From a virus: a DNA stretch of 64,000 bases. Shown one piece after another: positions 3,265-29,068 of the stretch (position 1 is the stretch's first letter; each line of letters starts with the position of its first letter). The stretch lies in IMG/VR virus record IMGVR_UViG_3300048104_000741, positions 1-64,000 of that record; one strand, written 5' to 3'. Position numbers and translations under genes: made by a program. The notes beneath the pieces are model-generated. The model did no database searches. It saw only the letters and a program-made list of their open reading frames with translations, and had not been told where the DNA came from.

Positions 3265-5730
3265 ATGGAAGAACCATTACCAAATTTCACGCCTAGAGTG
3301 CAGCAGGCTATAAAAATAGCAAAGCAACAAAGCATACACAATAAAAATGAAATAGTAGAGCCGATTAATTTGCTTTTTGGAATCTTCAAAGTACAAAGCT
3401 CTTTCTTTGACTCCTTAAGTCGATCTAAGCTTGCGGATGAAGATTTTTCAAATTATCTTTCTGCGATAAATTTACCCTCAGAAAAATTCGACATATCCAA
3501 GCTCACTTATTCTAAAAAATTTAAAAATATTTTAAGAAATTCAGTTGAAAAAGCCAATTCTTATAATCATGATTACGTCGGGATAGAGCATGTGTTAATC
3601 TGCTTGTTGGAAGACCCAGATGTAGCCCTGGTATTTAAAGGTTATAACATTGACCCAAGATTACTATCTAGGCAGTTAGAGCTATCGCTATCCGACTCAT
3701 TAGACGAAAACGAAAAAGAATCCCACCCCCATTCCGCCGAGGGAGATCAAGCTCAAGAAAGTTCTTTCAAATCTAATTTAAATTTATCAAAATATTGCGC
3801 AAATTTAACTGAGTTGGCCTCTCAAGGAAAATTTGATAAAGTTATAGGTAGAGATTCATCCATACTTTCAATGATTGAGATTTTATGTAGGAGAATAAAA
3901 AATAATCCTGTTATACTCGGAGAAGCTGGAGTTGGAAAAACAGCTTTGGTTGAAGGCTTGTGTCAAAAAATAGCGAATGGCGACGTGCCAGAACTTCTTT
4001 CGGGAAAAAACATTTACTCCTTAAACTTAAGCACTTTGGTCGCCGGAACTAAATATCGGGGTCAATTCGAAGAAAGGCTTCAAGACTTAATAAATGAAGC
4101 TGTCGCCGATGAAGACTGCATTCTTTTTATTGATGAATTTCATACGATAACTGGCGCTGGAGGAGCTGAAGGAGGTTTAGACGCGGCAAACATAATGAAG
4201 CCGTTACTTTCAAGAGGGCAATTAAAATGCATAGGAGCTACCACTCCAAAAGAGTACAAAAAGACTATAGAAAAAGACTCTGCTCTGGACAGAAGATTTC
4301 AGCCTGTTTCAATCGGCGAGCCAGATCAAAAGGATTGTCTAAAAATCTTAAATGGAATCATATCTAAATATGAAGCCTTCCATCAAGTCTCTTATAGAAA
4401 AAATGCAATAAAACTCGCTGTAGAATTGAGCTGTCGCTATATAAATGACAGAAACTTACCAGATAAAGCAATTGATATCCTAGATGAGGCGGGCTCAAAA
4501 GTAAAGTTGAAAGCTTTAGATAAGCCTCTGGAGTCTAGAGAAATAGAGGAAAAACTAGAAAACTTAATTCAGGAAGAGCAGGACTGCACAATTAAATCAA
4601 AAAAAGAAATCCTTTCGCAATCAATAGATGATCTTTTTGATGAGTACCAAACTATACTAGACTCTTGGCAAAAAAAATTATCAAAAAAGAAAGTTTTTGT
4701 TTCTGCTTCAGATATAGAAATGGTAATTTCCGAAAAAACGAAAATACCCCTTTCAATCATATCTTCAAATTCTAATGAAAAATTTTTAAATCTAAAATCA
4801 AACCTGTCGAAAGAGATAATAGGCCAGGATTCAGCTTTAGATTCTATATATAAATCTGTACTTAGATTCGCCTCGGGATTAAATGAAAAAGGAAAGCCTA
4901 TGGGAACTTTTTTATTTTTGGGTAAAACCGGAACTGGAAAAACCTTAACTGCGAAAAAAATTGCCAAATATATTTTTGGCGGAGAGAAGAATATAATTAG
5001 ATTCGATATGGGGGAATTCTCAGACTCTGTAAGCTCTAATAAAATAACAGGTTCTTCTCCGGGTTATGTGGGTTATGAAGAAGGAAGCTCTTTAGTTGAT
5101 TCGGTTAGGAAAAATCCATACAGCGTAATATTGTTTGATGAAATAGAAAAAGCTCACCCAGAAGTCTTAAAGGTTTTGCTATCTATAATGGATGAAGCTG
5201 AATTAAAAGATAATTTCGGTAGAGTTGCCGATTTTTCAAACACTTTTATAGTTTTAACTGGAAACCTAGGGTCTGAGATTATAGAAAAGTCTTCAATTCC
5301 TTTTGGTTTTTCTCAAGAAAATTCTGGAGATTTAATGAATAGTAAAATAAAATCAAAAGTAGAATCTTTCTTTTCTCCTGAATTTGCAAATAGAATAGAT
5401 GAGCTTGTAGTCTTCTCGGATTTCGATAAAGAGTCTTTTGTCAAAATAATAAACATTCAACTTAAAAAATTAAACCAAAAATTAAATTCAAAAAGAATTC
5501 GTGTTTCCTTAGATAAGTCTATGGAAGATTTTTGCCTAAAAGAATTAGAAAAATCTAACTTGGGAGCTAGACCTATTGAAAGAATATTCAACCAATCTAT
5601 AGAATTCCATCTGTCGAAAAGTCTACTTAAGAAAGAAATTGAATCTGGAGACAAGATTGAAGTGTTAAAAGATGCTGAAGGTAATGTCGTGATTAAAAAG
5701 GTCAACAACACTCCACAGGAACAGGCGTAA
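3265..5730 (+). CDS. clpC: ClpC-like AAA+ unfoldase (ATP-dependent Clp protease ATPase subunit)
   Basis: Clp-N repeats (FTPRVQQAI; HDYVGIEHVL), Walker A GEAGVGKT, GTKYRGQFEER, Walker B FIDEFH, second NBD GKTGTGKT / GYVGYEEG / LFDEIEKAH, IPFGF as a putative ClpP-docking loop, short middle coiled coil. Confidence 0.92.
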   Translation: MEEPLPNFTPRVQQAIKIAKQQSIHNKNEIVEPINLLFGIFKVQSSFFDSLSRSKLADEDFSNYLSAINLPSEKFDISKLTYSKKFKNILRNSVEKANSYNHDYVGIEHVLICLLEDPDVALVFKGYNIDPRLLSRQLELSLSDSLDENEKESHPHSAEGDQAQESSFKSNLNLSKYCANLTELASQGKFDKVIGRDSSILSMIEILCRRIKNNPVILGEAGVGKTALVEGLCQKIANGDVPELLSGKNIYSLNLSTLVAGTKYRGQFEERLQDLINEAVADEDCILFIDEFHTITGAGGAEGGLDAANIMKPLLSRGQLKCIGATTPKEYKKTIEKDSALDRRFQPVSIGEPDQKDCLKILNGIISKYEAFHQVSYRKNAIKLAVELSCRYINDRNLPDKAIDILDEAGSKVKLKALDKPLESREIEEKLENLIQEEQDCTIKSKKEILSQSIDDLFDEYQTILDSWQKKLSKKKVFVSASDIEMVISEKTKIPLSIISSNSNEKFLNLKSNLSKEIIGQDSALDSIYKSVLRFASGLNEKGKPMGTFLFLGKTGTGKTLTAKKIAKYIFGGEKNIIRFDMGEFSDSVSSNKITGSSPGYVGYEEGSSLVDSVRKNPYSVILFDEIEKAHPEVLKVLLSIMDEAELKDNFGRVADFSNTFIVLTGNLGSEIIEKSSIPFGFSQENSGDLMNSKIKSKVESFFSPEFANRIDELVVFSDFDKESFVKIINIQLKKLNQKLNSKRIRVSLDKSMEDFCLKELEKSNLGARPIERIFNQSIEFHLSKSLLKKEIESGDKIEVLKDAEGNVVIKKVNNTPQEQA

Positions 5731-5752
5731 TTTAAATTATTTTCTACTTACA

Positions 5753-6604
5753 CTATTTTTTATACCTTGATAAAGCTTCTTCTAACGCTTGTTGAGCGGT
5801 TCTTATTTTAATATATTGTTCTACTTTTGAAGTGTCTAGAATGCAATTTGATCTTGGTGCGACAGTTTCTTTGCTAAAAGATTCGATATCGTCGAAGAAT
5901 TTGAAGTCTTTATTTGATAGCTTATATTTCTTGATTAACCCAACTACTCCTTTTGCGTCGATAAAGCCCTTGTTTGTTATGTTGTATATTCCTTTTGGGA
6001 CTTTTTGTTCTATCAAGTCAATGCTGTACTTTGCGAAGTCAGCTCGATGAGACAAAGAATTGTCTAGATTAAGCAGCTTATCGTAAGATAATAACTTGGT
6101 AATGTAGTTTCTGGGAGAGGCGTGTTCGTCAAATGGAATGCGCAATCTAAAGATATAAGCGTTTGGATTGTTTTGCTTGACAACTTTTTCGGCGAGAGCT
6201 TTTGTTCCGCTATAGAAACTACCGTTTTGAAAATGAAAGTTAGAAGGATCGTCTTCTGCAAAGTGCTTATCGTAGCCACCATAAATACAACCTGAAGATA
6301 TATGAGTTAGCTCGTAGTCTTTTTCGCGGCATAATTGCGCAAGCATTAAAGGTAGCAGGACGTTCCCTTCTATACAGTCAGCTTTAGCTAATTCACAAGC
6401 GTCAACATTTGGTTTGCCGATATATCCTGCGCAATTAATTATATGCAAATTATCACCTAAGATATAGAGGTTGTATTTAAGCTCTGCGAGGTTCGTGTAA
6501 TCTACATCATTTCTACTCCAAGCGACATGAGATAAACTGCGAGACTTCAGTTCTTTAATTATAGCTTCTGCTATATAGCCGTTTTTACCTAATATTATGT
6601 ACAT
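5753..6604 (-). CDS. NDP-4-keto-6-deoxyhexose 3,5-epimerase/4-reductase (RmlD/NRS-ER-like SDR)
   Basis: GKNGYIA Rossmann motif, AGYIGKPNVDACE, SSGCIY, YSGTK catalytic YxxxK, LRIPF. Confidence 0.8.
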   Translation of the reverse strand: MYIILGKNGYIAEAIIKELKSRSLSHVAWSRNDVDYTNLAELKYNLYILGDNLHIINCAGYIGKPNVDACELAKADCIEGNVLLPLMLAQLCREKDYELTHISSGCIYGGYDKHFAEDDPSNFHFQNGSFYSGTKALAEKVVKQNNPNAYIFRLRIPFDEHASPRNYITKLLSYDKLLNLDNSLSHRADFAKYSIDLIEQKVPKGIYNITNKGFIDAKGVVGLIKKYKLSNKDFKFFDDIESFSKETVAPRSNCILDTSKVEQYIKIRTAQQALEEALSRYKK

Positions 6605-7152
6605 GATTTTATAAATTTATCTACAAATTCTTGAATCTCATCATTGCATAATAAGTTCACATTTTCATGAATTTTTTCATCGTCCCAATCCCACCATTGT
6701 ATTTTAAGGAGGTTTTTAATAGTTTCTTCATCAAAACGAAACTTGATATGTTTTGCAGGATTTCCGCCGACAACTGAATATGGTTCTACATCTTTAACGA
6801 CATGACTATTATTTGCAATCACAGCACCATCACCAATTGTAACACCACTGAGTATCTTAGTATTTTCACCAATCCATACATCACTTCCAATAACAACATC
6901 TCCATTTGTGTTTTTAGATTGATTATTTGCATTTTTAAATTTATCACCAGACATCCCTTTGAGTCCTGGTGCTCCAAATGGAAACGTAGAAACATTGTTA
7001 ATATCGTGACCTTTGCCGTTTGATAGCATAATTTCTACGTTTGTAGCTATACTTGAAAAATTTCCAATAACCAATTTATGATTAAATAAATTCCAAGTTA
7101 CACGGCCACGAAAATAAGAATGTCTACCTATGGTAATTGGGTTAGTTTTCAT
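6595..7152 (-). CDS. Hexapeptide-repeat (CatB/Vat-family) O-acetyltransferase
   Basis: IGNFSSIA, VSTFPF, DVVIGSDVWIG, GVTIGDGAVIA, VGGNPAK, IQWWDW. Start placed at ATG 7152, which overlaps the upstream stop. Confidence 0.85.
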   Translation of the reverse strand: MKTNPITIGRHSYFRGRVTWNLFNHKLVIGNFSSIATNVEIMLSNGKGHDINNVSTFPFGAPGLKGMSGDKFKNANNQSKNTNGDVVIGSDVWIGENTKILSGVTIGDGAVIANNSHVVKDVEPYSVVGGNPAKHIKFRFDEETIKNLLKIQWWDWDDEKIHENVNLLCNDEIQEFVDKFIKSCT

Positions 7153-7586
7153 TTTAATATATCTGGGTTTTGTTGTATTGTTTGTTTGGTAATTAAATCT
7201 TTGAGTCGAGTGGTTGACCATTCATGGGAGCGAGTAGTATATATAACTTTTGGAGGGAGGTCGTGTCCTGTGAAACTTTTACCAATGTAATCTTCTCCAA
7301 GTATGCGAACATCGGGCTTCCAAAATTTAATCAAATCAATAAGTTCTTCCTCTGTCTGATACATATATACTTCGTCAATATATTTTATAGCCATTAAAGC
7401 TTTATATCGTTCATAATATGGTATAACAGGTTTGTATTTTGTATAACGCGTAGCGCTTGGATCTCGTTGTAAGAAAACTAAAAAACGATCACAATGTCGT
7501 TTTGCTTCTTCGAAAGTATAAATATACCCTGGGTGCAGCAAGTCAAAATTGCCTGCTGTAAATCCTGTTATTTCTTTGTTTTTCAT
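7149..7586 (-). CDS. Cytidylyltransferase (TagD/glycerol-3-phosphate cytidylyltransferase-like)
   Basis: GFTAGNFDLLHPGY (HxGH variant), GEDY, RSHEWSTTRLK. Confidence 0.85.
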   Translation of the reverse strand: MKNKEITGFTAGNFDLLHPGYIYTFEEAKRHCDRFLVFLQRDPSATRYTKYKPVIPYYERYKALMAIKYIDEVYMYQTEEELIDLIKFWKPDVRILGEDYIGKSFTGHDLPPKVIYTTRSHEWSTTRLKDLITKQTIQQNPDILK

Positions 7587-7587
7587 T

Positions 7588-8337
7588 TTAAATTATTTTG
7601 TGTTTTATTGGGTGAAAACATCCAATCGGGACTTCGTTTTCATTTTTATATTTTTGATTCAAAAAATCAACCTGAGGACGCCTAGCTAAATTTTCGGAGT
7701 CAAAAATTGTTTTGTCGACTTTTGGCTTTACATTCGTTAAATAAGTTAAGATTGACATTCGAACTTCGCAGAAAATATCTAGTTCATATAAATAATCATA
7801 TTTACTGGAGATTATTTGCTCAATAAAGTCTTTGGTTGTGTAAAAGCCGGCAAAAGGAGCAACGAAACGCTCAATATTTTTTTCGTATTTTAAAGCTTCT
7901 TCGTAGTATTGCCATTTAAGTTTTTTGATCCATCCCACCACAGTCGAATTAAACCCTTCAATTTTAATATGAGGAAGCTCTTTGTTTAGTAATACATCCC
8001 ACTCAAAAAATGCTACATTATTTGTAGTAATCATATGAAAATTATCTTTAAGCCAATTTCGTAGAAATTTGTCATGATTTCTTACCAATATATGCCTCAA
8101 TTCATCTTCATTAGAATCGCGTAATGCCATTTTTGAGAAATCGACTTCAACACCATAATTAACATCTTTTACTTTGTATGAAGAATATGGGGCTGGTAAA
8201 AAATATTCTCTACCATCTGCGTATAGAATATTCGCCGAGGGATTTGATTTTTCATAAAAAGAACTATGAATATGAGGGCAAACAGATGAATCTGCTGTAT
8301 GATATATTATAGTCCAGTCATTCTTACTCATCTTCAA
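7588..8337 (-). CDS. Hypothetical protein, possibly glycosyltransferase-like
   Basis: Lies in a sugar operon; FFEWDV (DxD-like) and C-terminal FHPIK as seen in GT-A folds. Confidence 0.4.
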   Translation of the reverse strand: MKMSKNDWTIIYHTADSSVCPHIHSSFYEKSNPSANILYADGREYFLPAPYSSYKVKDVNYGVEVDFSKMALRDSNEDELRHILVRNHDKFLRNWLKDNFHMITTNNVAFFEWDVLLNKELPHIKIEGFNSTVVGWIKKLKWQYYEEALKYEKNIERFVAPFAGFYTTKDFIEQIISSKYDYLYELDIFCEVRMSILTYLTNVKPKVDKTIFDSENLARRPQVDFLNQKYKNENEVPIGCFHPIKHKII

Positions 8338-8343
8338 GCTTCC

Positions 8344-9276
8344 TTATGTTAATTCTTTTAATCCTGTCTTAAAGTTTACACTTGGAAACCAATTTAGTTC
8401 ATTCTGAATTTTACTATTGTCAATTGCATAACGCCAATCGTGACCCAATCTATCTTTAATGAATTCTATCTGACTCTCATCTTTATCTAAAAGTTTGAGT
8501 ATAGTTTTAACAATATCAATATTGCGAACTTCATTTTTGCCGCCAATATTATAAACTTCACCAATTTTTCCATCATGCAATACCACATCAATACCAGAGC
8601 AATGATCTGAAACATGAATCCAATCACGAATATTCCTACCATCACCATAAACAGGGAGTTTTTTGCCTGCCTTGGCATTTTTAATCATTAATGGAATTAA
8701 TTTTTCTTCATGTTGATTTGGCCCGTAATTGTTTGAACAGCGAGTAATTAAAATAGGATAATTGAAAGTCTCATAAAAACTACGGCACAACAAGTCAGCA
8801 CTTGCCTTGCTTGCCGAATAGGGGCTATTGGCTTGTATTGGCGTGTTTTCGGTAAAGGCATCATCCCCTTCGCTCAAAGTTCCATAAACCTCGTCTGTGG
8901 ACACCTGAAGATATCTCTCGATGGTCGGACAATCATGAAGTAACGTGAGGAGCGAGTGTGCGCCATTTATATTCGTATGAACGAAAGGAGTCGAATCATT
9001 TATACTATTATCAACATGACTTTCAGCCGCAAAATTAACAATATAATTTATATCATTCTTTTGTATTAAATTACGAATACGATCTGTATCATTAATATCG
9101 CAAATGGATAAACTGTATCGACTTGAATTGTTAATTTCGTCACTGATGTTATCGTAGCTTGCTGCATATGTTTTTAGATCAACATTATGAATATGATAAT
9201 TTTTATATTTATTGAATATGTATTTTATGAAATTACTTCCAATAAATCCTAGCCCGCCAGTAACCAATAAATTCAC
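8344..9276 (-). CDS. rfbB: dTDP-glucose 4,6-dehydratase
   Basis: LVTGGLGFIGSNF, NFAAESHVD, STDEVYG, PYSASKA, RCSNNYGP, RDWIHV, DRLGHDWRYA. Confidence 0.95.
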   Translation of the reverse strand: MNLLVTGGLGFIGSNFIKYIFNKYKNYHIHNVDLKTYAASYDNISDEINNSSRYSLSICDINDTDRIRNLIQKNDINYIVNFAAESHVDNSINDSTPFVHTNINGAHSLLTLLHDCPTIERYLQVSTDEVYGTLSEGDDAFTENTPIQANSPYSASKASADLLCRSFYETFNYPILITRCSNNYGPNQHEEKLIPLMIKNAKAGKKLPVYGDGRNIRDWIHVSDHCSGIDVVLHDGKIGEVYNIGGKNEVRNIDIVKTILKLLDKDESQIEFIKDRLGHDWRYAIDNSKIQNELNWFPSVNFKTGLKELT

Positions 9277-9283
9277 ATTGAAA

Positions 9284-10111
9284 TTATTCGGGTCTTTTTC
9301 CTAACGGCTTTCCGTCTTGTCCAATTTCGCCAGCTCGTATCTTTGTGGCGGATACATCCTGAAGCTCTTTGCTTAGTTCAAGTTGTTCGATGTTATAACC
9401 GACCCCTCTCCCATAAAAAACATCCATAATATTGGGTATCTCTATTATTTTTATTTTATTTCCAAATTCTACGCAAGCGGCATGAATTTCTGCTTTTACT
9501 TTTTCAAAATCGTATGGGTTTTTTTCATCGATTCCCCCTACATCTCTTAATGCTATACAGCATTGGCCAGTTCTTTTAATTGCTTCAGCAACTAAGGTTT
9601 TGTGGCCCACGTGAAAAGGTTGATATCGACCAATGAGTAGCGCTGTAGGAGCTTGATTGTCCCAAGCTTCTGTTTTGTAAATGTTTCCTAACGCAGTTTC
9701 AGCCCATTCTTCGGGAGTACCATCTTCAAGGATTAAATCTCCTTCATCCCATCTTTCATCTTTAGTTGGGTCTTCAAATAATTTATTTGTATCCTCGTAT
9801 CTACCTTCTTTAATTCTGTTGACCCAAATCACAAAATCAGGGTTGAACAATTCTCTAGCTTTTGCTGTTGGACAACAAAAATCAGATATTACATAACCCC
9901 CTCCTAGCGCAGCCCAATCTGCGAGCTTCCCCATTCTTCTTGAATGCTCGTTCCTGTCTTCTTCTGAAAATCCAAGGTCTTTATGTATTTCTTGTCTTAC
10001 AGCGTCAGCATTAAACCATACAGCGTTTAGCTTTGGTACTAGCTTTTCAGCTAGAGTCGTTTTTCCTGATCCGGGCAACCCCATTATTAATATTTTTCTT
10101 TTTGTTCTCAC
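9284..10111 (-). CDS. cysC: Adenylyl-sulfate kinase-like domain fused to an HxGH nucleotidyltransferase domain
   Basis: GLPGSGKTT, NADAVR, DLGFSEEDR, FCCPT; C-terminal GRYQPFHVGH and SATKIR. Confidence 0.75.
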   Translation of the reverse strand: MRTKRKILIMGLPGSGKTTLAEKLVPKLNAVWFNADAVRQEIHKDLGFSEEDRNEHSRRMGKLADWAALGGGYVISDFCCPTAKARELFNPDFVIWVNRIKEGRYEDTNKLFEDPTKDERWDEGDLILEDGTPEEWAETALGNIYKTEAWDNQAPTALLIGRYQPFHVGHKTLVAEAIKRTGQCCIALRDVGGIDEKNPYDFEKVKAEIHAACVEFGNKIKIIEIPNIMDVFYGRGVGYNIEQLELSKELQDVSATKIRAGEIGQDGKPLGKRPE

Positions 10112-10120
10112 GACCTTTGT

Positions 10121-10155
10121 TACACTTTTTTTTTTTGCTATTTTAGATTTGTGTA
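10121..10155. promoter_or_regulatory. Divergent pair of GTGTA-N9-start promoters
   Basis: TACAC 10121-10125 lies 9 nt from the minus-strand GTG at 10111; GTGTA 10151-10155 lies 9 nt from ATG 10165. Confidence 0.65.
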
Positions 10156-10164
10156 TAATTTTAC

Positions 10165-10362
10165 ATGAAAAACTCTTTAAAGCTAATCAAAAAATTAAAA
10201 AAATGCCTTTTATTATTAAATAAAGAACAAATAGAATATGAAATGATAGAAAAAATAATTAGATCTTTAAAAAGAAAATTAGAAATGGGAGAGAATCCCT
10301 ACAAGTTTAAATCTAATGCTCAATTAACCGACAACTACTTAAAAGATTTTCTTGATTTTTAG
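10165..10362 (+). CDS. Hypothetical protein
   Basis: 65-aa ORF preceded by the GTGTA-N9 motif. Confidence 0.6.
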   Translation: MKNSLKLIKKLKKCLLLLNKEQIEYEMIEKIIRSLKRKLEMGENPYKFKSNAQLTDNYLKDFLDF

Positions 10363-10365
10363 GCT

Positions 10366-10411
10366 TGACATTTACTCTTCTATGTGTAATATTACTTATA
10401 GATCTTTGAAA
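10366..10411 (+). promoter_or_regulatory. sigma70-type promoter and boxA-like element upstream of the tmRNA
   Basis: TTGACA at 10366 with a -10-like region (TGTAAT/TATTAC) near 10385-10395; GATCTTTGAAA at 10401-10411. Confidence 0.55.
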
Positions 10412-10419
10412 TTTTTGCT

Positions 10420-10848
10420 GGGGGTGTACTGGATTCGACTAATGTTGGAATTTGGCGCTGCAAGTCGGAGATGCATCTGGCTCCGATATCAAGATGCAAA
10501 AGCTATACATGGCGAAGGTTATTATAGTATTGAAGAGCTTATTGAAGCTGCTACTGAAGAGTACGAGTCTCTCGTGCAATTTGAGCAGGCTGAAGAGCTT
10601 GAGATGGTAGCTTAAAGCTGCCCCCTTACTTTCTTTGACGCAGATACTAGAATAGTAAGGACATTTATCTGCAAAAACAGAAAAGGTTTATCTGTTAATA
10701 AACTGTAGTCCGCTGAGTATTTGGAGGCAAATAATTGTAACAGAAAGTTAGATGTTAATATCGCAACTATAAAAAAAATTAACTAAACTTGTAGGTGCGT
10801 CAACCAAAGGCACTTAGGACGCGGGTTCAACTCCCGCCACCTCCACCA
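10420..10848 (+). ncRNA. ssrA: tmRNA (transfer-messenger RNA)
   Basis: 5' GGGGGTG pairs with 3' CACCTCC including the G3-U wobble, followed by ACCA. 5' GGATTCGAC and 3' GACGCGGGTTCAACTCCCGC T-arm. Tag frame 10511-10615 ends in ...EMVA*. Confidence 0.95.
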
Positions 10849-10893
10849 AAATTTTTAAAAATAGAAAAAAAAATTACAACGAAAACTCGAACA

Positions 10894-11061
10894 GTGGACG
10901 ATACACACAAGAAATACAGAAATACAGAAAAAGGTAAAAAAGCGCAAGAGAAAGCTCGCAAAAAGTATGATGAAGCCGATTTGGAAAGAAGGAGATCTCA
11001 AAAGCGAGAGTACATGAGAAAAAAAAGACGAGAAGACCCTGGGTATTGCAAGTGGAAGTAA
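10894..11061 (+). CDS. Small basic hypothetical protein
   Basis: GTG 10894 chosen because the track start (10795) lies inside the tmRNA; K/R-rich helix. Confidence 0.55.
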   Translation: MDDTHKKYRNTEKGKKAQEKARKKYDEADLERRRSQKREYMRKKRREDPGYCKWK

Positions 11062-11793: not shown

Positions 11794-12663
11794 ATGACCA
11801 ATAAAGATAAAAAAATAGAAAAATTTAACCAATGGCTATCTTGCTATCAAGAAGATTTGGGTCGAATAGTCGGTAAATATAGATTTACTAATCACGCTTT
11901 GGAGCATGATGAAGTGGTTTCTGAAATTAACTTAGGCATCATAAAGAGTTATGAAAAGCTAGCTTCAGACTTAAAAAATCCGATTAAAACTGAATTAGAT
12001 TTTCAAAAAACAGCTTACTCTTATGCAAGAAACTATATAAAGTGGACGGCAGATGGAGCTTCAAATAGAGATAAGAAATATATAATGAATCGTCAGGATG
12101 GAGTGGTAGCTTCTGATGGTGAAGGTAAAACTGTTTTTGAGTCTGTGTGTGAAACCATAGGTAAGGAAGACTCTTTTTTTGCATCTTTGAATGACTCTGA
12201 TAAATTTCAAAATATACTTTCTTGGATTTTTGATTTCAGCCATTTTCTTACCCCTCATCAAAAAAACATACTAGAGCTTTTATTGTCTGGAAAAAATCTA
12301 GATGAAGTCGGAGATTTAACCGGGGTAAGCCACCAGGCGATATCATCAATTTCAATAGAAATGTTTGCGGCAATTAAAAACAATGTAAAAGTCGCCATAG
12401 GGGACGATGATAGTGATAAATTAAAAATAAAAGAAGGTCATGCTTCTATAAAAAAGCTTTTTAGCTTGGAAAGAAAATCTAGAATGATGAATCTAAAAGA
12501 CTTAAGTTTTATAAAATCTCGATTAATAGAAAATCCAAAAAAATATACTCTGATAGATTTGGTGGCCATGTTAAAAGGTAAATATTCCTCAAGACAGATA
12601 TGCGCTTTTGTTAACAGGAACAAATATAATATTTATTTAAAGAAAATCGCAGATAAGACTTGA
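11794..12663 (+). CDS. Phage sigma70-family RNA polymerase sigma factor
   Basis: Region-2-like HDEVVSEINL...AYSYARNYIKW; region 4 LTPHQKNILEL...LDEVGDLTGVSHQAIS. Confidence 0.7.
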   Translation: MTNKDKKIEKFNQWLSCYQEDLGRIVGKYRFTNHALEHDEVVSEINLGIIKSYEKLASDLKNPIKTELDFQKTAYSYARNYIKWTADGASNRDKKYIMNRQDGVVASDGEGKTVFESVCETIGKEDSFFASLNDSDKFQNILSWIFDFSHFLTPHQKNILELLLSGKNLDEVGDLTGVSHQAISSISIEMFAAIKNNVKVAIGDDDSDKLKIKEGHASIKKLFSLERKSRMMNLKDLSFIKSRLIENPKKYTLIDLVAMLKGKYSSRQICAFVNRNKYNIYLKKIADKT

Positions 12664-21454: not shown

Positions 21455-21468
21455 ATATTATATTAATA

Positions 21469-21882
21469 ATGAATATAATAGTCGGAGAGATGTTCAAGTT
21501 AACTTTTTATAAAAAGTTTTTTAATTGTTTTTTTAAGACGTACCTAAAAAGCGGATCTTACTCCTACGATCAAATTATAAAAATAGACTTAGAGTTAAGA
21601 TTTTTCTTTAATGAAAACTTAAAGCGAAAAAAAGATCCTAAAAAGGTTAGAGAAGAATTATGCGTCAATTTATCTAACTCTTTTAAGAGTCCATTTGATG
21701 TAGAGTGTCTCGTTTATAACTATCAAAGCACAGAGCTTTCAGACGTTTCTAATTTTGCCTTTGAGGATATTTTCAACTTTAAATTTTGCCCTACTATAAA
21801 ATGTTCTACCGAAGAATATTTATCTCATTTATTATTTTTTTATTTTAAAAATGGAAAACTATTCAAAAATACCAATTCATAA
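21469..21882 (+). CDS. Hypothetical protein
   Basis: ORF track; packed between neighbours. Confidence 0.5.
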   Translation: MNIIVGEMFKLTFYKKFFNCFFKTYLKSGSYSYDQIIKIDLELRFFFNENLKRKKDPKKVREELCVNLSNSFKSPFDVECLVYNYQSTELSDVSNFAFEDIFNFKFCPTIKCSTEEYLSHLLFFYFKNGKLFKNTNS

Positions 21883-22360
21883 AGAATCTCCCTATATAGT
21901 CAACTCTATAATAGAAATAGAAGAGGGCTCGAGAAATAAATATGAGTTTGATAAAAATCTCAACGCTTTTGTTTTTGACAGAATTTTAAGGTCAGCGATG
22001 GTCTATCCTTGTAATTACGGCTTTATACCCAACACAATGGCTGACGATGGAGACGCCTTGGATGTCTTAGTTTATAGCCCCGAACCTATAAAAAGAGCTA
22101 CTTTAGTCGAGTCTAGGGTTATTGGATGCTTAGACATGGAAGACGGAGGCTTCAAAGATTATAAGATTTTTGCAGTGCCATCTTTTTTTAGGGAAGATTT
22201 TAGCATTTTGAAACATCTTGATCCAGATATTTTAGACATATTTGAAAATTTCTTCTTAAGATATAAAGATTTAAGTCATAGCGAGTCGCACGTCTCCTTA
22301 AAGGGGTGGCTTACCAAGGAAGAAACTTTTAAAATTATAAACGAAAGTGTTTTAAAATGA
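21851..22360 (+). CDS. ppa: Family I soluble inorganic pyrophosphatase
   Basis: IEIEEGSRNKYE, YPCNYGFIPNT, DGDALDVLV, MEDGGFKDYK, FFLRYK. Confidence 0.93.
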   Translation: MENYSKIPIHKESPYIVNSIIEIEEGSRNKYEFDKNLNAFVFDRILRSAMVYPCNYGFIPNTMADDGDALDVLVYSPEPIKRATLVESRVIGCLDMEDGGFKDYKIFAVPSFFREDFSILKHLDPDILDIFENFFLRYKDLSHSESHVSLKGWLTKEETFKIINESVLK

Positions 22361-22457
22361 TTTCTATACTGCTTCTATCAATCTTATATTTTTTTTGTGA
22401 AAGATATTATTTAAATATCCCGAAGGGAAAACATATAAAAGACTTGCGATTAAATAA

Positions 22458-22667
22458 ATGAAACCAGTTTTACTTCTCTCTTTTTTGTTTTTGTTTGGGT
22501 GTTATCCAATAAAAGTAAAAGAGAAGGAAAGAGACTGGAAAGAAATTTACAAGAAAGAAATGCTTAAAGCTAGGGAAAATCAAGATAGAGATGCTTATTT
22601 CTTTTTTCTTAAAGAGTACGAGAAAGAATTCGAAAAGTCTGCGGCAAATAAAAATACTATTGACTAA
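22458..22667 (+). CDS. Putative lipoprotein
   Basis: Lipobox LFLFGC after a hydrophobic N-terminus. Confidence 0.6.
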   Translation: MKPVLLLSFLFLFGCYPIKVKEKERDWKEIYKKEMLKARENQDRDAYFFFLKEYEKEFEKSAANKNTID

Positions 22668-22694
22668 AAAGTCTTTTTGTGTTATATTTATAGT

Positions 22695-23489
22695 ATGACA
22701 CAAAAAATTATTGAAAATTCTTTCGTTGATAAACTAATTAGTTTCGGGGAATCCTTATCTAAGGAAATTGTAGATATACAAAACTCCGATTTTGAGGTAA
22801 ATCAAAAAGAAGATGAGTCCCCGCTGACTAAAGCTGATTTGCATTCTAATTCTCGAATTAAATCTTTCTTAAAGGAAAATCACTCGCTAAGTAACATTTT
22901 ATCTGAAGAAGATAAATCTGTTGATTTCGACTTAAGAAAAAAATGGGAGTATTATTGGGTAATAGATCCTATAGACGGAACAAAAGAATTTGTTAAAGGT
23001 CGAGAAGATTATTGTGTAAATATAGCTTTATGCAGAGGTTCTGATCCTATTTTTGGATATGTTTTAGTCCCCAAGTCTAAGGATTATTATTTGGGAGGAG
23101 AAGATTTTAATGCGGAAAAAAATGGATCCCCTATAAAATGTGGAAAAGTCTCGAGCTCAAGCAAGATGAGGATCGTAGCTTCCAATTCGCATATAAATGA
23201 AGCTACTCAGTCTTACATTGATGACGTAAAAAAAGATTTTGAAGTTGAAGTTTTAAAAGTTGGAAGTTCTTTGAAATTTTGCTTAATAGCTGAAAACAAG
23301 GCGGATATATATCCGAGAATAGGTCCGACTATGGAATGGGACACCTGCGCCCCACATGCCATTCTAAATTCGGCGGGAGGGAATGTTTCGGAGTATCTAT
23401 CGCCTTCAAGCTTAAAATATAATAAAGAGAATCTTCTAAACCCAAGTTTTGTTGCTTCGGGATTTTTGGTTTTCCCCACTGTAATTTAA
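22695..23489 (+). CDS. cysQ: 3'(2'),5'-bisphosphate nucleotidase (CysQ, inositol monophosphatase family)
   Basis: SPLTKAD, LSEE, WVIDPIDGTKEF, GSSLKFC, YPRIGPTMEWDTCA, YNKENLLNP. Confidence 0.92.
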   Translation: MTQKIIENSFVDKLISFGESLSKEIVDIQNSDFEVNQKEDESPLTKADLHSNSRIKSFLKENHSLSNILSEEDKSVDFDLRKKWEYYWVIDPIDGTKEFVKGREDYCVNIALCRGSDPIFGYVLVPKSKDYYLGGEDFNAEKNGSPIKCGKVSSSSKMRIVASNSHINEATQSYIDDVKKDFEVEVLKVGSSLKFCLIAENKADIYPRIGPTMEWDTCAPHAILNSAGGNVSEYLSPSSLKYNKENLLNPSFVASGFLVFPTVI

Positions 23490-23514
23490 AGATTTTAATT
23501 ACACTCGTTTATAT

Positions 23515-25149
23515 ATGGCAAATAAAAGCCCCAGAGTAAAAGACAAGTGGATATCTATAGAATACGAGGGAGTGAACTATCGAAGTGTAGCAGCTTGTGC
23601 TGAGGCTATAGGTATTGGAAAAGCTGTTCTATACAGAGGTTTTAAGAAAAAGTTAAATATTTATCAAATCGTCGAAAGACATAATACCCATGGGCCTAGT
23701 ACTTCAATACCCATGGAGTATAAAGGTAAACTTTATGAGTCTACTGCTGCTTTTTGTCGAGATCACAATATTCACCCCGCAACTTTTCTTAGCAGAAGAA
23801 AAGCTGGTGATTCCATTGATCACATACTTAAAACTTATCAACCTCAAGTAGTTATCAAATGGTCGGAAGAAAAAGTCAAGAATGCAGTTTTAGAAATTTA
23901 TAAAAAATTTAACGATGGAAAACCTTGCGGCTTAAGCGTTTCTGATGTTCGTCAATATATTGTAGACAATAATCTCGCATCTTTATCCAGAGAAATAGTA
24001 AAATATTTTGGATCAAAACCTAATCTTGATAAAGAGCTCGGGCTGGAAAAAATAGACAGAGGACTTCCTTGTAGAGCGTCTTTTGATCAATTTATTATTG
24101 ATTTTAAAAAAACTTGGAGCGATCCTGATTCGGAATTCTCAAAATGGTTAAAACATATTGGGCACGAAGGTTACCCCTTTGATTATTCTGATTCTGAATA
24201 TAAAAATAACCATACAAGTGTAAAAATTTTCTGCAACATATGTAAAAATCCCTTTTATCAATTAGTCGATTCGCACAAAAAAGGATTCTGCGGTTGCAAA
24301 AATTGCATACCTAAGTATAGAAGTTTTAAAACCCAACAATATACTATCGAAGATATATTTAGATTAGCCATTGAAAAGCATGGAACCGACCTTGAATATA
24401 ACTTTGAAAAAACAAAAAAAGAATATACAGGGTATTCTCATAGCTATATTTATTATGTTTGCCCTAAACATCGAGATAATGGAGAGCGTAAAGTTTCCTG
24501 CCAGAATCATTTATTAAATGGCCATGGATGCCCATCTTGCGGCAGTATTCAAAGTGGAATCTCTAACACTGAATCCCTCGAAGAGAACATAAGAAAGAGT
24601 GAAGCAAAACATGGTAAAGGGCGCTACGATTATAGCTATATAAAAGAAGAAGACTTTAAAACAAAAAAAGATAAAGTAAAAATCTTTTGCCCTGAACTTG
24701 ATAAAGATGGGAATCCTCATGGATTTTTTCTTCAAACTTGGAGCAATCATATTGCTGGATCTGGATGCCCAAAATGCAATACATTAAATAACTCAAAAGC
24801 TGTTCAACTAATTACTCAAATACTCTTAAAGCATAATATTAATTTCGAAAGAGAAAAAAGATTTCCTGAGTGCAAAAATAAAAAACCTTTACCATTTGAT
24901 TTTCTTTTGGTAGATTACAATATACTCATTGAATTCGATGGAATACAACATTTTGAACCCATGAGATGGTACAATAATCACCCTGCTGACCCAAAAAAAG
25001 CAGAAGAAAAACTCCTACAAACCCAAGCTAACGACAAAATAAAGAATAACTGGTCTAAGAAATCTCCCTATACTTTATATAGAATTCCTTATGATAAAAA
25101 CGTCGAAAAAGAATTGAATAAAATTTTAATTAAAAATAAAGTAATATGA
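23515..25149 (+). CDS. Homing-endonuclease-like protein with HTH and zinc-ribbon repeats and a C-terminal Vsr/DUF559-like nuclease
   Basis: Two YxSxAAxxxxxxI repeats, several CxxC/CxxH...GCPxC modules, LPFDF...IEFDGIQHF...DKIKN. Confidence 0.7.
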   Translation: MANKSPRVKDKWISIEYEGVNYRSVAACAEAIGIGKAVLYRGFKKKLNIYQIVERHNTHGPSTSIPMEYKGKLYESTAAFCRDHNIHPATFLSRRKAGDSIDHILKTYQPQVVIKWSEEKVKNAVLEIYKKFNDGKPCGLSVSDVRQYIVDNNLASLSREIVKYFGSKPNLDKELGLEKIDRGLPCRASFDQFIIDFKKTWSDPDSEFSKWLKHIGHEGYPFDYSDSEYKNNHTSVKIFCNICKNPFYQLVDSHKKGFCGCKNCIPKYRSFKTQQYTIEDIFRLAIEKHGTDLEYNFEKTKKEYTGYSHSYIYYVCPKHRDNGERKVSCQNHLLNGHGCPSCGSIQSGISNTESLEENIRKSEAKHGKGRYDYSYIKEEDFKTKKDKVKIFCPELDKDGNPHGFFLQTWSNHIAGSGCPKCNTLNNSKAVQLITQILLKHNINFEREKRFPECKNKKPLPFDFLLVDYNILIEFDGIQHFEPMRWYNNHPADPKKAEEKLLQTQANDKIKNNWSKKSPYTLYRIPYDKNVEKELNKILIKNKVI

Positions 25150-26366
25150 AAATTAATAAAAAATTAAAAAACGCAGAGTTCGAATACGATGAAGAAACAA
25201 AGGTTTTTACCATTATGGAGCAAGATGGCTTCCACGGTCATATTCAATTAAATAAGGTATACGCTTTTGCTTTCATGCGTTTTGTTGTTAGAATGGCTCA
25301 AAGAAATTGGCTAAAAAACCCGAAAAAGAATCATAAATATGAGCCTGAGGCCCTAGAGAAAGAAAACGAAGATCAATTAAAAATGTTTTAAAGTTTATAT
25401 TGAATTAAAGATATATAAAGTATAATATATAATATACATGACAAACAATAAAAAAAATAAACCAAAAATAATTTACTCCTCAGAAATAGAAGAATTTTTC
25501 TGGGAGGATTCTGACATTTCTGTATCTGAAGGCTTTCCTGTAGGCGTAGAAATTGACAATGGAGATCGCGTAGATTTAGTTTTATGCGAGGGAATTTACC
25601 ATGAGCACAAAGAGAGCAGAGCCTAGACTTTTTCAATTTAGAGTGAAATATAACGCTGGTTCTTATCATTCTGCTATGGATAGTCATCATTATTATTATG
25701 CAAAAAACGAGCAAGAAGCTTTAAATAATCATAATTTCGTAATCAAGAAAACGGGCTCTTCTCAGACTCTAAAAGTTGAAAAATTCAATCCTTATTCGGG
25801 AAAGTGGGAAGACAAAAGCGAAATTTTAGCGAAGAATATTAGCTTTGATTTTCAAAATTGAACATGAAATCTTCAAATATAGTATATTCAGAGCATGGTT
25901 TAGACGAGTGTTTTGAGTATAAAAATGGATCTGGTAGAGTGCCAGATGGATTGGCTGTTGGCTTTGTAAAAAATTTCTCTGGGAGTACTTTGAGAGATTT
26001 ATTTCTTTTTGATGATATAATTTATAGTAATTACGATCACGACTATTGGGACAACCTAGAGTTGGAAAATGACGTAGATAGATTAATATTGCCATGATTG
26101 CTTTTAATAAAGACTTCGGGGATCTTGGCAAAAAAAAAGTTAGTAAGCTTATTGACCTCCAAGATCTTTTGGATTTGGCCTCCGAAATGGAGGCTGAGAT
26201 GGAGCAGGAAGAGAAAAAGCTACAAACTTTCGAAAATGTAGATCTTTCTAAAATTTTAGAATTGATATATAATTCCTTATTTTTAGATAAAAATTCTCAA
26301 ATTGAATTAGCTATCGTAAAATCCGACAATAACTCCTTAAGTTTATCCATGTCTTCAAAAAAATGA
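25146..26366 (+). other. Run of five small hypothetical ORFs (25146, 25438, 25601, 25858, 26094)
   Basis: Overlapping start/stop codons in the ORF track. Confidence 0.5.
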
Positions 26367-26914
26367 CTAAAGAAAAAGTAGATAAAGAAAAAAATTACTC
26401 AAAAAAAATCGAGCGAATAAAACCTATATTAATGGGATTTGCGTTAAAAAAAATTCGAAACCGCGTAGACGCTGAAGATGTAGTTCAAAATTGTCTTATT
26501 ATTTTATTTAAGAAAGAAGCTCTTTTTGATTCGAGTAAAAGTTTCTTCAACTGGGCTTTTACTATTTTAAATTTCCAAATAAAAGGTTTTTTTTCTCAGC
26601 GCTCAAGATCAAAAGAAGATTTAGTCGGTGAAGTTGAAAATTCTTCTAACAATGCGCATGCCGACTATATAAATTCTAGAGATTTTTTAGAAAAGAAAAG
26701 AGATCAGTTACGCCTATTAAATCTAAACAAAGATTGCCTATCAACTAGAGAGTCTCAAGTCTTAAATTTGACATTAAAAGGTTTTAAACAAATAGAAATA
26801 TCTCGAGAGTTGAAAATTCGATCCTGCCATGTAAGCAATTACAACAAGAATTTAATAACTAAGATGAAATCAAGACTTTCAAACGAGGTGGCAAAAACCT
26901 CCAATCATTATTAA
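26363..26914 (+). CDS. ECF-type RNA polymerase sigma factor
   Basis: DAEDVVQN, SFFNWAFTI, LSTRESQVL...GFKQIEISREL. Confidence 0.85.
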   Translation: MTKEKVDKEKNYSKKIERIKPILMGFALKKIRNRVDAEDVVQNCLIILFKKEALFDSSKSFFNWAFTILNFQIKGFFSQRSRSKEDLVGEVENSSNNAHADYINSRDFLEKKRDQLRLLNLNKDCLSTRESQVLNLTLKGFKQIEISRELKIRSCHVSNYNKNLITKMKSRLSNEVAKTSNHY

Positions 26915-27482
26915 AAGAAAATTAAATAATACTTCTCGCAAATCTTCTATTTTAAAGCTGAGATCGCAAGGAAAAAGTTATAGTGAAATCGAAAAAGAGC
27001 TGGGTTGCTCTAGGTCTACCATATCATACCATTGCGGCACGGGAAGTGAAAAAAAAAGAGCAAAAGCTTCAAATAAAAACACCTCTCCTCTTTGCAAAAA
27101 GGTTTCAAACTTTAAAAGTCGATGCTCAAGAGCTAATTATAAAATTTTTAGATCTAAATTTAAAACCTTTAAAAAACGAAGTAAAGGCTCCAAAAACATT
27201 GTGAATAATGTATCAAAAAATTATTCCTGCAAGGATGTAATAAATAAAATTGGAAAAAATCCCATCTGTTATCTTACGGGAGAAAAAATAGATCTAAATA
27301 AACCCCAAACCTATAATTTAGACCATTTAATTCCAACCTCAAAAGGAGGCTCTAATGACCTTTCCAATCTTGGTATTTGTTTAAGAGACGCAAACCAAGC
27401 TAAGGGGGATTTGCTTGTCGACGAGTTGCATTCTCTGTGTGAAAAAATTTTAAGCTGGAAGAAAAAATGCGATTCCCCTTAG
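26910..27482 (+). CDS. HNH endonuclease with N-terminal HTH (non-canonical ATT start or lost ATG)
   Basis: The frame of ORF 27201-27482 is open from 26868 and encodes LRSQGKSYSEIEKELGCSRSTISYHC, then CYLTG...LDHLIPTSKGGSNDLSNL...NQAK. Confidence 0.65.
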   Translation: MKRKLNNTSRKSSILKLRSQGKSYSEIEKELGCSRSTISYHCGTGSEKKRAKASNKNTSPLCKKVSNFKSRCSRANYKIFRSKFKTFKKRSKGSKNIVNNVSKNYSCKDVINKIGKNPICYLTGEKIDLNKPQTYNLDHLIPTSKGGSNDLSNLGICLRDANQAKGDLLVDELHSLCEKILSWKKKCDSP

Positions 27483-27823
27483 AAACTCATTTTTTTGTAG
27501 ATTGTGGGTCTTTTTTTGAAGCGAAGCTCGCGGGTTTTTATGATGAATTTTGCGAAGAGCTTATTTATATTAAAAGTTCTGAAGACCCTGAATTAAATTT
27601 AACTCCAAGCGAAATTGAAGAAATATCCGAAACTCCAGACTTATTCGACATCAATTTTATTGAATCTGGGGAAATTTTAACTAATTGCAAGATTTTTTAC
27701 TTAGAATCTTATAATAATTATTATATGCTTCAAAAAGATTTCGTGCCTGACAGCGTTTTAATTCAATGTTGGAAGCTTCTTAAGGTGGAAGACTTGTTTG
27801 ATCCCAATGACTATTGGTTTTAG
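27467..27823 (+). CDS. Hypothetical acidic protein
   Basis: ORF track. Confidence 0.5.
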   Translation: MRFPLETHFFVDCGSFFEAKLAGFYDEFCEELIYIKSSEDPELNLTPSEIEEISETPDLFDINFIESGEILTNCKIFYLESYNNYYMLQKDFVPDSVLIQCWKLLKVEDLFDPNDYWF

Positions 27824-27888
27824 TTTTAAAAACAAATCTCTTTTTTTGCAAATATAGACCTAAAAAAGTTTTTAGTGTATTTTTTTCT

Positions 27889-28293
27889 GTGGAAAAATAC
27901 GATAAAGAGCACAAACACCTGCTAATAAACGCGACTTTTGAAAAAACGCCTTTCATTGATGAAGCTTTCACCCGATCTTGGATTTCTAATTTGGTAGATA
28001 TTATTGGAATGGAAGAACTCTTAACTCCTCAATCAGCCCGTTCAGAAGAAAAAGGAAATGAAGGGGTTAGCGCTTTTTGCATAATCACAACTAGTCACAT
28101 TTGTCTACATTCTTGGGAAAAAATGAAACCAAATTTAGTGCAGTTAGACGTTTATAGCTGTAAAGATTTTTGTCAATTTTTAATATTAGATGAATTAAAA
28201 AAATTCAAACCAATAAGGCTTGGTGGAAAATATCTAGACAGAAGTATTGAAAATACTAGGGGATGGGAAATGGGCAGAGAGGATCTTTTTTAA
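27889..28293 (+). CDS. speD: S-adenosylmethionine decarboxylase proenzyme (pyruvoyl-dependent)
   Basis: HKHLLI, GVSAFCIITTSHICLHSW, LDVYSC. Start placed at GTG 27889, 9 nt after GTGTA. Confidence 0.8.
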   Translation: MEKYDKEHKHLLINATFEKTPFIDEAFTRSWISNLVDIIGMEELLTPQSARSEEKGNEGVSAFCIITTSHICLHSWEKMKPNLVQLDVYSCKDFCQFLILDELKKFKPIRLGGKYLDRSIENTRGWEMGREDLF

Positions 28294-28294
28294 T

Positions 28295-29068
28295 TTGAAA
28301 ATACACTTTAAGCATTATTCGGGTTCCATATCTCAGTATGATTATTTGTTTTTTGATTGTATGGCTGAATTAAAACCTCAAGAGGAGAATGAAGCTTTAG
28401 AAGGGGGCTGGTTGCCCGATGATTATTTAATTATTAAAAATAAAAATGGAAAAACGAAGAGTTCTCGCTGGTATCAAGCTAGGCAAACTAGAATTGCTTT
28501 AAAAAACTATAAAGACACAAAAAGTGCCAAAAAAACTAGAAAAAAATGCAGCGATATAAATGTAAAATCTATTAAAGCTAATGAGGTTGATATGCCTGAA
28601 TTAGAGTTGATTTTTTCAAAATATACTCAATATAAAAATTTTAAACAATGGGAGCTAAAACCTCTAATTTCTTCTGAGGTCGAGAGGAAATATTTTTTAA
28701 TTTATTATTTAAATAATAAAGCAATAGCTTTTACCTTTATGAGGGATGTTGGCTCAAACAGCGTTTTCTCCACTCAATTTGCTTGGGACTATCAAAACCC
28801 GAAATTATATCTTGGCAAATATGCAACTTTAGCTGAGATTGATCATTCTATCAATAGCGGAAGAGACTATATGTACCTTGGCTTAGGGTATGAAAAGTGC
28901 TGTATTTACAAATCAGATTATAATGGTTTTGAATTTTGGACTGGAGAGGAATGGTCTAACGATGTAGAGCATTATAAATTTTTATGCGAAAGAGATTCAA
29001 AAATAATTAAAACTAGCGATCTCGATAAGGTAAAAAGGCATGATGATAAATATTTTTATAATAAATAA
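28295..29068 (+). CDS. Arginyl/leucyl-tRNA-protein transferase-like (ATE/Bpt C-terminal GNAT-type domain)
   Basis: ALEGGW, WYQARQTRI, FAWDYxxPKLYLGKYATLAEI, YMYLGLGYEKCCIYK. Confidence 0.6.
   Translation: MKIHFKHYSGSISQYDYLFFDCMAELKPQEENEALEGGWLPDDYLIIKNKNGKTKSSRWYQARQTRIALKNYKDTKSAKKTRKKCSDINVKSIKANEVDMPELELIFSKYTQYKNFKQWELKPLISSEVERKYFLIYYLNNKAIAFTFMRDVGSNSVFSTQFAWDYQNPKLYLGKYATLAEIDHSINSGRDYMYLGLGYEKCCIYKSDYNGFEFWTGEEWSNDVEHYKFLCERDSKIIKTSDLDKVKRHDDKYFYNK

Follow-up and report, generated by a model that had tools for sequence, protein, structure and literature searches.

A conserved ClpC-tmRNA pair and a mobile ATE-like transferase cassette are probably separate modules of a marine phage

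We analyzed a 64,000-nucleotide stretch of viral DNA (the window), which is the first 64 kb of the 72,649-base IMG/VR record IMGVR_UViG_3300048104_000741, and focused on three of its elements: a ClpC-type unfoldase, a transfer-messenger RNA (tmRNA) with an odd tag, and a homologue of the aminoacyl-tRNA-protein transferases ATE and Bpt. A first-pass annotation had joined these, together with a tRNA-Arg(UCU), into one phage degradation circuit, in which the tmRNA and the transferase would write C-degrons and N-degrons and the phage unfoldase would read both. All four elements withstood our analysis, and the three-part circuit as one unit is not supported. Instead, we hold with moderate confidence that the window carries two separate modules. 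The first would be a proteostasis pair of the unfoldase and the tmRNA, kept by the whole clade of related phages, and the second a mobile cassette that encodes a SpeD-like decarboxylase, the ATE-like transferase and a protein with a CPF motif. All coordinates of these features are collected in Table 1.

The distribution of the genes across related phages carries this separation. ClpC and the tmRNA occurred together in 9 of 9 near-complete relatives. Of the 12 searched records that had been selected through the ATE-like gene, 6 had ClpC and 4 had a tmRNA that passed the cut-off, and the two near-complete genomes of this set (G002 and G003) have all three genes. Since the set is biased by that choice, 18 records chosen by a tmRNA motif were searched as well. 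ClpC was found in 12 of them, including all seven that are at least 90% complete; the six misses were all fragments of at most 26% completeness. Only 6 of these 18 records had the ATE-like gene, among them 4 of the 7 complete genomes. Every one of the 17 records with both ClpC and the tmRNA has them on one strand, at a spacing of 0.2-22 kb (4.7 kb in the window); the two are neighbours in G007 and G221, and in G232 a distance of 1.4 kb separates them. The ATE-like gene, where present, lies 29-47 kb from the tmRNA in the relatives and 18 kb from it in the window. These counts make ClpC and the tmRNA a conserved clade pair and the transferase an accessory gene. The co-occurrence expected of a circuit was therefore borne out for ClpC and the tmRNA and failed for the transferase, which is absent from three of seven complete genomes.

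The unfoldase had been called a full ClpC, and it aligns end to end with one. Residues 7-813 of 821 match residues 5-806 of Bacillus subtilis ClpC (3j3s) with an E value of 1e-180 in phmmer, and this alignment is gap-poor, whereas ClpB and ClpA align in two pieces only. Pfam placed Clp_N (30 bits), AAA, AAA_lid_9, AAA_2 and ClpB_D2-small in the open reading frame (ORF), which thus has the Clp N-domain and the short, half-length M-domain of a ClpC. The Walker A/B motifs (GVGKT / DEFH and GTGKT / DEIEKAH) and the pore loops (KYRG and GYVGY) are conserved and, with the AAA and AAA_2 matches, mark the two AAA+ modules of this class. The protein also belongs to the phage family phrog_4871, annotated as 'ATP-dependent protease' (E 3e-222).

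We next compared the predicted ClpP-docking loop in D2 among the window's ClpC and six phage homologues from whole-record searches, five of them from close relatives and one from a more distant record, G012. The docking-like loop reported by the first-pass annotation is real, in a variant form: the window has FGF at the [ILV]-G-[FL] tripeptide, the relatives have VGF or IGF, and the Gly-Phe pair (G681-F682) is invariant in 7 of 7 homologues. The loop argues for a protease-coupled unfoldase over a ClpB-type disaggregase. As a separate observation, record G012 (L036/L037, L043), a phage that also carries an ATE core, encodes a 769-aa ClpA-like ATPase with an IGF loop and no M-domain.

A search for phage-encoded clpP, clpS and smpB, which had been suggested along with the circuit, yielded none in the records searched. 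ClpP was found neither in the window's record nor in five relatives (G002-G005 and G007), nor in any of 5 genomes at least 98% complete. SmpB was not found in the window's record or the same five relatives, ClpS, the N-degron reader, in none of these six records, and MecA in none of 5 records. The adaptors MecA and ClpS, on which a ClpC would depend, were thus not found, McsB was not searched, and host adaptors are possible. Given these results, the protease partner and any adaptors would have to come from the host. The net charge of the ClpC N-domains showed no pattern that follows the tag type, in a comparison with a single odd tag (n = 1). A literature search for phages combined with a Clp protease ATP-binding subunit as an auxiliary metabolic gene found no report, and one directed at phage-encoded tmRNA gave no paper.

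The tmRNA was recovered over the whole Rfam model RF00023 (positions 1-374) with 118.1 bits against a gathering score of 47, and ARAGORN agreed. Read from the sequence, the 5' GGGGGUG of the acceptor stem pairs with CACCUCC, followed by ACCA, which gives the RNA a tRNA-Ala-like acceptor stem. The tag was read by homology, because the tag calls of ARAGORN were inconsistent: they differed in frame among the relatives, and two tmRNAs were missed. We therefore replaced its 21-residue call for the window with a reading from five aligned tmRNAs, which share the resume context ACATG followed directly by GGC. The resulting tag is GEGYYSIEELIEAATEEYESLVQFEQAEELEMVA, with 34 codons from GGC at 10511 and the stop codon at 10613-10615, and this stop lies in the loop of a hairpin, GGTAGCT-TAA-AGCTGCC. 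In the distant record G012, a tmRNA-like match remained sub-threshold and ARAGORN called a permuted tmRNA.

We then placed this tag among those of related phages. Viral contigs scanned for the tmRNA motif contained 31 matching loci, 23 of which belong to this tmRNA family, including the four aligned relatives; the other 8 lack the resume motif and were excluded from the tag count. All 23 relatives have tags of 20-21 codons that start with GNK or GKK and end in LALAA or VAMAA, and the four aligned ones read GNKSRI(K/Q)AYSP(Q/K)SE(S/Q)LALAA. The frame of the window is open for 34 codons but ends in EMVA, and its tag has a net charge of -11, compared to +2 to +6 in the relatives. Judging by these sequences, the window's tag is an outlier within its clade, which upholds the earlier description of a tmRNA with an atypical tag. 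An independent DNA run spans 10127-10792 with 0 differences. Two metatranscriptome runs from different studies each contain a 418-nt contig that covers 10429-10846 with 0 differences and then runs into adapter letters. The agreement of independent DNA and RNA-library runs shows that the odd tag is not an assembly error, and the 418-nt contigs fit a discrete, abundant RNA. RNA-library contigs also reach parts of ClpC and of the minus-strand block beside it; the uncovered parts carry no meaning.

What the acidic tag does can be read in more than one way. The tag may be decayed or neutral, so that the tmRNA still frees ribosomes and the 34 residues are no degron and have no reader. The window stands alone among the 24 tmRNAs of the family, its net charge is far from that of the relatives, and the replaced stretch keeps a second frame open, all of which would suit decay. 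On the other hand, the frame, the resume codon, the position of the stop codon and its hairpin are all kept, and the C-terminus is still a non-polar -MVA; ssrA variants that end in -LVA are rapidly degraded in E. coli. Many seawater runs, from different years, contain the same sequence, as do RNA libraries. Weighing these points, we regard a decayed tag as possible, if on the doubtful side. A private form of trans-translation, in which the acidic tag would go unread by host ClpXP/SspB and either be read by phage ClpC on host ClpP or shield the rescued products, appears unlikely to us. If it were true, control over what becomes of rescued polypeptides would lie with the phage instead of the host.

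In the reading of two modules, the first would work with host parts. ClpC, with its ATPase and pore motifs intact, would dock on host ClpP, as the phage has none of its own. Transcription of the tmRNA would probably start at a promoter of its own, and the host would have to supply AlaRS to charge it with alanine and EF-Tu and SmpB to deliver it. In the relatives it would write the conserved basic LALAA tag, an ordinary ssrA-type C-degron; in the window phage, the tag region appears to have been replaced, leaving a strongly acidic 34-residue tag that ends in EMVA. The pair would most likely free ribosomes and dispose of truncated or host proteins during infection, and as a putative proteostasis module, reliant on the ClpP and SmpB of the host, such a pair would be reasonable.

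The two genes could also be core genes of the clade with no functional link. ClpC would then be an ATPase with a general role in host takeover or as a chaperone, and the tmRNA would do no more than rescue ribosomes. Their variable spacing and their reversed order in two relatives are what such independence would predict, ClpC-like ATPases are an established phage family (phrog_4871), and the available text of PMC4131195 describes phage tmRNAs without ClpC, such as those of the mycobacteriophage Bxz1 group and Bacillus phage G. Against this stand the adjacency or near-adjacency in G007, G221 and G232 and the shared strand in every record that has both genes. We consider the absence of any link rather unlikely.

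Turning to the second module, the ATE-like protein is a true but remodelled homologue of ATE and Bpt. The earlier assignment to this family holds: Pfam ATE_C (PF04377) scored 32.6 bits against a cut-off of 25, and ATE1 is the best fold match. An AlphaFold2 (AF2) model with a predicted local distance difference test (pLDDT) score of 84 matched ATE1 (8tzv) best in the PDB (Z 16.4, 218 residues aligned, root-mean-square deviation 3.4), with K. lactis Ate1 (KlAte1; 7wfx) at Z 14.5 and MprF, FemX and L/F-transferase next, and the GNAT fold of ATE1 extends over residues 10-257. The NCBIfam arginyltransferase models gave an E value of 2.6e-10, yet only 40 of the 170 bits of the equivalog cut-off. Metagenome proteins yielded 90 homologues, on contigs as long as 217 kb; a search of 50,697 deposited phage records yielded none, and there was no matching PHROG. 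A literature search for arginyl-tRNA-protein transferases and phages found no phage-encoded enzyme by title or abstract.

ATE_N gave no match to this protein at E up to 0.01, the NCBIfam alignments cover nothing before residue 79 (of 273), and the first 100 residues contain a single Cys and neither a CxxC nor a CC motif. In a profile alignment, KlAte1 S255, S273, E277, Y289, W260 and Y303 correspond to S159, A177, E181, M193, W164 and Y205, with little or no variation at E181, W164 and Y205 among 25 sequences, so that the predicted donor-pocket and tRNA-side residues are retained. The roles of these pocket and tRNA-side residues are taken from the available portion of PMC9351520, which describes KlAte1 E277 as binding the Arg moiety and a Gln at this position in the Leu-transferring Bpt. 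The region of the Arg that recognises acidic N-termini in ATE (KlAte1 Arg80) tentatively reads GWLPDD in the phage protein, in a motif-level alignment; ATE has a GFRRSG-type motif there. Bacterial Bpt sequences for a comparison of the N-terminal residues were not found in 121 genomes sampled from one phylum.

To define the neighbourhood of the transferase, we compared all ORFs of the window to 30 ATE loci by tblastn. In all 8 close relatives the SpeD-like gene immediately precedes the ATE-like gene, and the CPF-motif partner adjoins the ATE-like gene in 14 of the 30 loci; in the 16 other loci (L009-L024), many of which have short flanks, the partner was not found beside it. Six distant loci encode a transferase cut to its C-terminal core of 136-140 aa, with the partner gene abutting 5', and in five of these (L025-L028 and L030) the ATE-like gene and the CPF partner are all that is common to the window. 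The presence of this core pair in otherwise unrelated phages points to a mobile cassette. Rather than being part of a ClpC/tmRNA circuit, the transferase is thus locked to the SpeD-like gene and the CPF protein. In one unrelated lineage, loci L025 (9417-10671) and L030 (220-2607) encode, in this order, the CPF-motif protein, a C-terminal-only ATE core of 136-140 aa and a DUF6614 protein, and in L030 a 383-aa ORF is inserted before the DUF6614 gene.

The CPF-motif partner belongs to a family with 802 representative relatives. Across 50 sequences C22 never varies, and conservation reaches at least 90% at P23, D92, H93 and P94; these residues belong to C-P-F and D-H-P motifs. It has no Pfam family, no significant PDB sequence match and no Foldseek match at E up to 0.001, and only weak matches to DUF6875. 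Ten homologues searched against Pfam gave one match, to a radical SAM fusion; a family representative (P0235) is fused to a radical SAM/SPASM domain in a protein of 572 aa. The AF2 model of the partner (pLDDT 89) had AglA (9ub3_A) as its top match among 48,161 chains, with Z 6.8 over 138 residues, and the next match at 4.5. A Z score under 8 can reflect a common fold arrangement. PF08892 (YqcI/YcgG), the family of AglA, gave no match to the partner at E up to 1, hhalign against YqcI/YcgG gave a probability of 4% with one member and 0.5% with 24 members and aligned only the Cys motif, and AglA in the PDB was not matched by sequence. As these sequence tests failed, the parallel to AglA is a lead and not a membership. 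The sources name the YqcI/YcgG family 'FPC/CPF motif-containing protein YcgG', and the available text of PMC12866846 describes AglA as a Cys44-ligated haem enzyme of that family that hydroxylates the guanidine of arginine, on a substrate, AMPn-Arg, prepared with AglC, ArgRS and tRNA. A complex prediction for the ATE-like protein and its 152-aa partner, run without controls, scored 0.00.

Taken together, the second module would be a cassette of a SpeD-like decarboxylase, an ATE-like transferase and a CPF-motif protein. The transferase retains the residues on the tRNA side and, in the donor pocket, the Glu that is typical of arginyl transferases. The Cys motifs of the N-terminal part are gone, and so, it appears, is the Arg for recognition of acidic N-termini. 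By comparison with AglC and AglA, the transferase and its partner would more likely aminoacylate an amine and then modify it than write N-degrons, and by this analogy a small-molecule, arginine-type pathway is at least as likely as N-degron writing. The transferase probably does not write N-degrons.

These results bear directly on the full circuit, in which C-degrons from the tmRNA and N-degrons made by the ATE-like protein with Arg-tRNA would both be read by phage ClpC on host ClpP. The window, G002 and G003 do hold all three genes, ClpC keeps its ClpP loop, the transferase keeps the arginyl-type donor-pocket Glu, and a tRNA-Arg gene is present. Nevertheless, three of seven complete genomes with ClpC and the tmRNA lack the ATE-like gene, this gene travels with its CPF partner in phages that share nothing else with the window's phage, and its distance from the tmRNA is large throughout. 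The N-degron arm fares no better: the Cys motifs of ATE_N are absent, the Arg for acidic N-termini is apparently missing, and ClpS, described as the reader of N-degrons in the available part of PMC8138137, was found in none of six records. The tRNA-Arg(UCU), detected where the first-pass annotation had placed it by both ARAGORN and Rfam, matches the codons in use: in 19 long ORFs, AGA accounts for 150 of the 284 Arg codons, and one relative has the same tRNA-Arg clustered with tRNA-Leu and tRNA-Thr. Codon supply is therefore a sufficient explanation for this tRNA, which would serve AGA-rich phage genes. We consider the full circuit very improbable.

Several points weigh against the reading of two separate modules. 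For the first module, the available text of PMC8138137 has ssrA tags read by ClpX with SspB, and ClpC in need of adaptors or phospho-arginine substrates, and no adaptor was found in the phage. Co-occurrence within one clade may reflect only a shared core genome, and the distance between ClpC and the tmRNA ranges over 0.2-22 kb, with the order reversed in G002 and G227. RNA-library contigs cannot prove transcription or strand. The +1 frame of the tag region is open as well, for 32 codons, which makes the openness of the tag frame weak evidence. For the second module, the link between the partner and AglA consists of a middling Z of 6.8 and a motif, to which sequence and profile searches added no support, and the apparent loss of the Arg80 equivalent was read from an alignment at motif level.

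Table 1 Features of the window, with strand and basis of assignment
Feature	Coordinates	Strand	Basis
DnaE-type DNA polymerase III alpha subunit	216..3263	+	Pfam DNA_pol3_alpha, finger, HHH_6; NCBIfam TIGR00594, 457 bits (above cut-off); phrog_405
ClpC-type double-ring AAA+ unfoldase, 821 aa; N-domain, short M-domain, D1, D2	3265..5730	+	Pfam, phmmer, phrog_4871
Predicted ClpP-docking loop, residues 678-682, I-P-F-G-F	5296..5310	+	aligned to V-G-F of B. subtilis ClpC
Minus-strand block, six ORFs between ClpC and tmRNA	5753..10111	-	ORF list; Pfam for two of six
NAD-dependent sugar epimerase/dehydratase, GDP-mannose-dehydratase/epimerase family	8344-9276	-	Pfam
APS-kinase-like / cytidylyltransferase-like protein	9284-10111	-	Pfam
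Promoter-like site TTGACA-N16-TAATAT, 27 bases 5' of tmRNA	10365..10392	+	consensus scan, 10/12 matches; pattern match only
tmRNA (ssrA), tRNA-like domain, G3-U acceptor pair, CCA end	10420..10848	+	Rfam, ARAGORN, alignment with 4 relatives
Tag reading frame, 34 codons + TAA	10511..10615	+	resume context and stop position common to relatives
SpeD-like pyruvoyl decarboxylase (AdoMet_dc family), first cassette gene	27814..28293	+	Pfam PF02675, 43 bits; phrog_3125
ATE/Bpt-like aminoacyl-tRNA transferase homologue, 257 aa (273 aa from TTG 28247)	28295..29068	+	Pfam ATE_C, AF2 fold
CPF-motif protein, 152 aa; possible haem-thiolate enzyme	29069..29527	+	neighbourhood, AF2 fold; phrog_10325
tRNA-Arg(UCU)	57792..57868	+	ARAGORN, Rfam

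The source is an uncultured marine phage, and the window covers about half of its genome: the record is linear, with 33% G+C and a CheckV completeness of 53%. Its phage identity is backed by homologues of rIIA and rIIB, a tail-fibre-like protein and homing endonucleases. The gene of a DnaE-type polymerase lies immediately 5' of ClpC. No close deposited phage was found, the best DnaE identity being ~33%. DNA near-identical to 3265-11000 was present in 23 public runs from 22 studies, all labelled marine or seawater metagenome, and two of these runs are a possible source of the record itself. Bacterial genomes screened with ClpC peptide patterns gave only three distant matches (27-33% identity), which offer no clue to the host, and viral contigs screened in the same way gave no relatives. 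In the closest relative, G007, the gap between ClpC and the tmRNA is only ~190 bases, which leaves no room for the minus-strand block, made up in the window of genes of a sugar-nucleotide type.

Further elements were observed elsewhere in the window, all on the plus strand. The rIIA and rIIB homologues lie at 53365-55635 (phrog_612, E 4e-87) and 55746-56906 (phrog_609, E 1e-57), in a phage whose polymerase is DnaE-type and not T4-type. A manA RNA motif at 60209-60419 scored 80.8 bits with Rfam RF01745, whose gathering score is 55.2. A sigma-70-like protein with region 2 and a GerE-type region is encoded at 26363-26914, and a second ORF, at 11794-12663, has a weak sigma-factor match; with these two sigma-like ORFs the phage may redirect host RNA polymerase. 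ORFs resembling HNH or homing endonucleases lie at 23515-25149, 27201-27482 and 36250-37077, one of them just 5' of the SpeD/ATE cassette.

Phage tmRNAs are already on record, according to the available portions of PMC4131195 and PMC7162821, and so are phage Clp ATPases, so that the parts themselves are not new. What is unusual is that a whole clade of abundant marine phages with genomes of ~140-210 kb carries ClpC and a tmRNA while neither ClpP nor SmpB was found, and that one member has swapped the canonical degron tag for a long acidic one, in an RNA that still appears in metatranscriptomes. This amounts to an experiment made by nature, both on the requirements of a functional ssrA tag and on whether such a tag is recognised by a phage unfoldase. 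With the ATE-like cassette, in turn, a phage would be employing charged tRNA for a purpose other than translation, and annotating its ATE-like gene as an N-degron enzyme appears unwarranted from sequence alone.

Compared with the ClpC-ClpP systems of B. subtilis and Staphylococcus aureus (3j3s, 6em8), the phage protein has the same domain order, the same Walker and pore-loop motifs and a Gly-Phe docking loop. Its identity to deposited sequences is only about 35-42%, its loop reads FGF where B. subtilis ClpC has VGF, and in the alignment the first N-domain repeat is without the G-T-E-H-type motif of B. subtilis ClpC, which the second repeat keeps as GIEH. Unlike in these bacteria, no ClpP, MecA or other adaptor was found in the phage. 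The tmRNA has the same full-length, one-piece form as those of bacterial trans-translation and of other phages (the mycobacteriophage Bxz1 group, Bacillus phage G and huge phages) and shares with bacterial tmRNA the tRNA-like domain, the G3-U pair, the CCA end and a tag stop within a hairpin. It departs from known trans-translation systems in its 34-codon acidic tag ending in EMVA and in that no phage SmpB was found in the record and five relatives.

The transferase resembles ATE1 (8tzv, 7wfx, 8e3s) in its above-threshold ATE_C match, a fold match over the whole model and the conserved equivalents of W260, E277 and Y303, and it resembles Bpt at pocket positions A177 and M193. It differs from both in having no ATE_N match, no CxxC or CC motifs, and equivalog scores far under the cut-off. 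For the cassette, the nearest analogy is AglC and AglA of the argolaphos pathway of Streptomyces monomycini, in which, as far as the available text describes it, a tRNA-dependent aminoacyl transferase is paired with a small haem enzyme, ligated by Cys, whose target is the arginine guanidine; AglC is likened here by its described role and not by family. The phage partner has 152 aa compared to ~240 in the AglA family and shows no significant sequence or profile similarity to it, and no phosphonate genes were seen around the phage cassette, which has a SpeD-like decarboxylase as a neighbour instead. Like the AglA family, the partner has a CPF motif, close to its N-terminus and with a Cys that does not vary among its relatives, and AglA is its best fold match.

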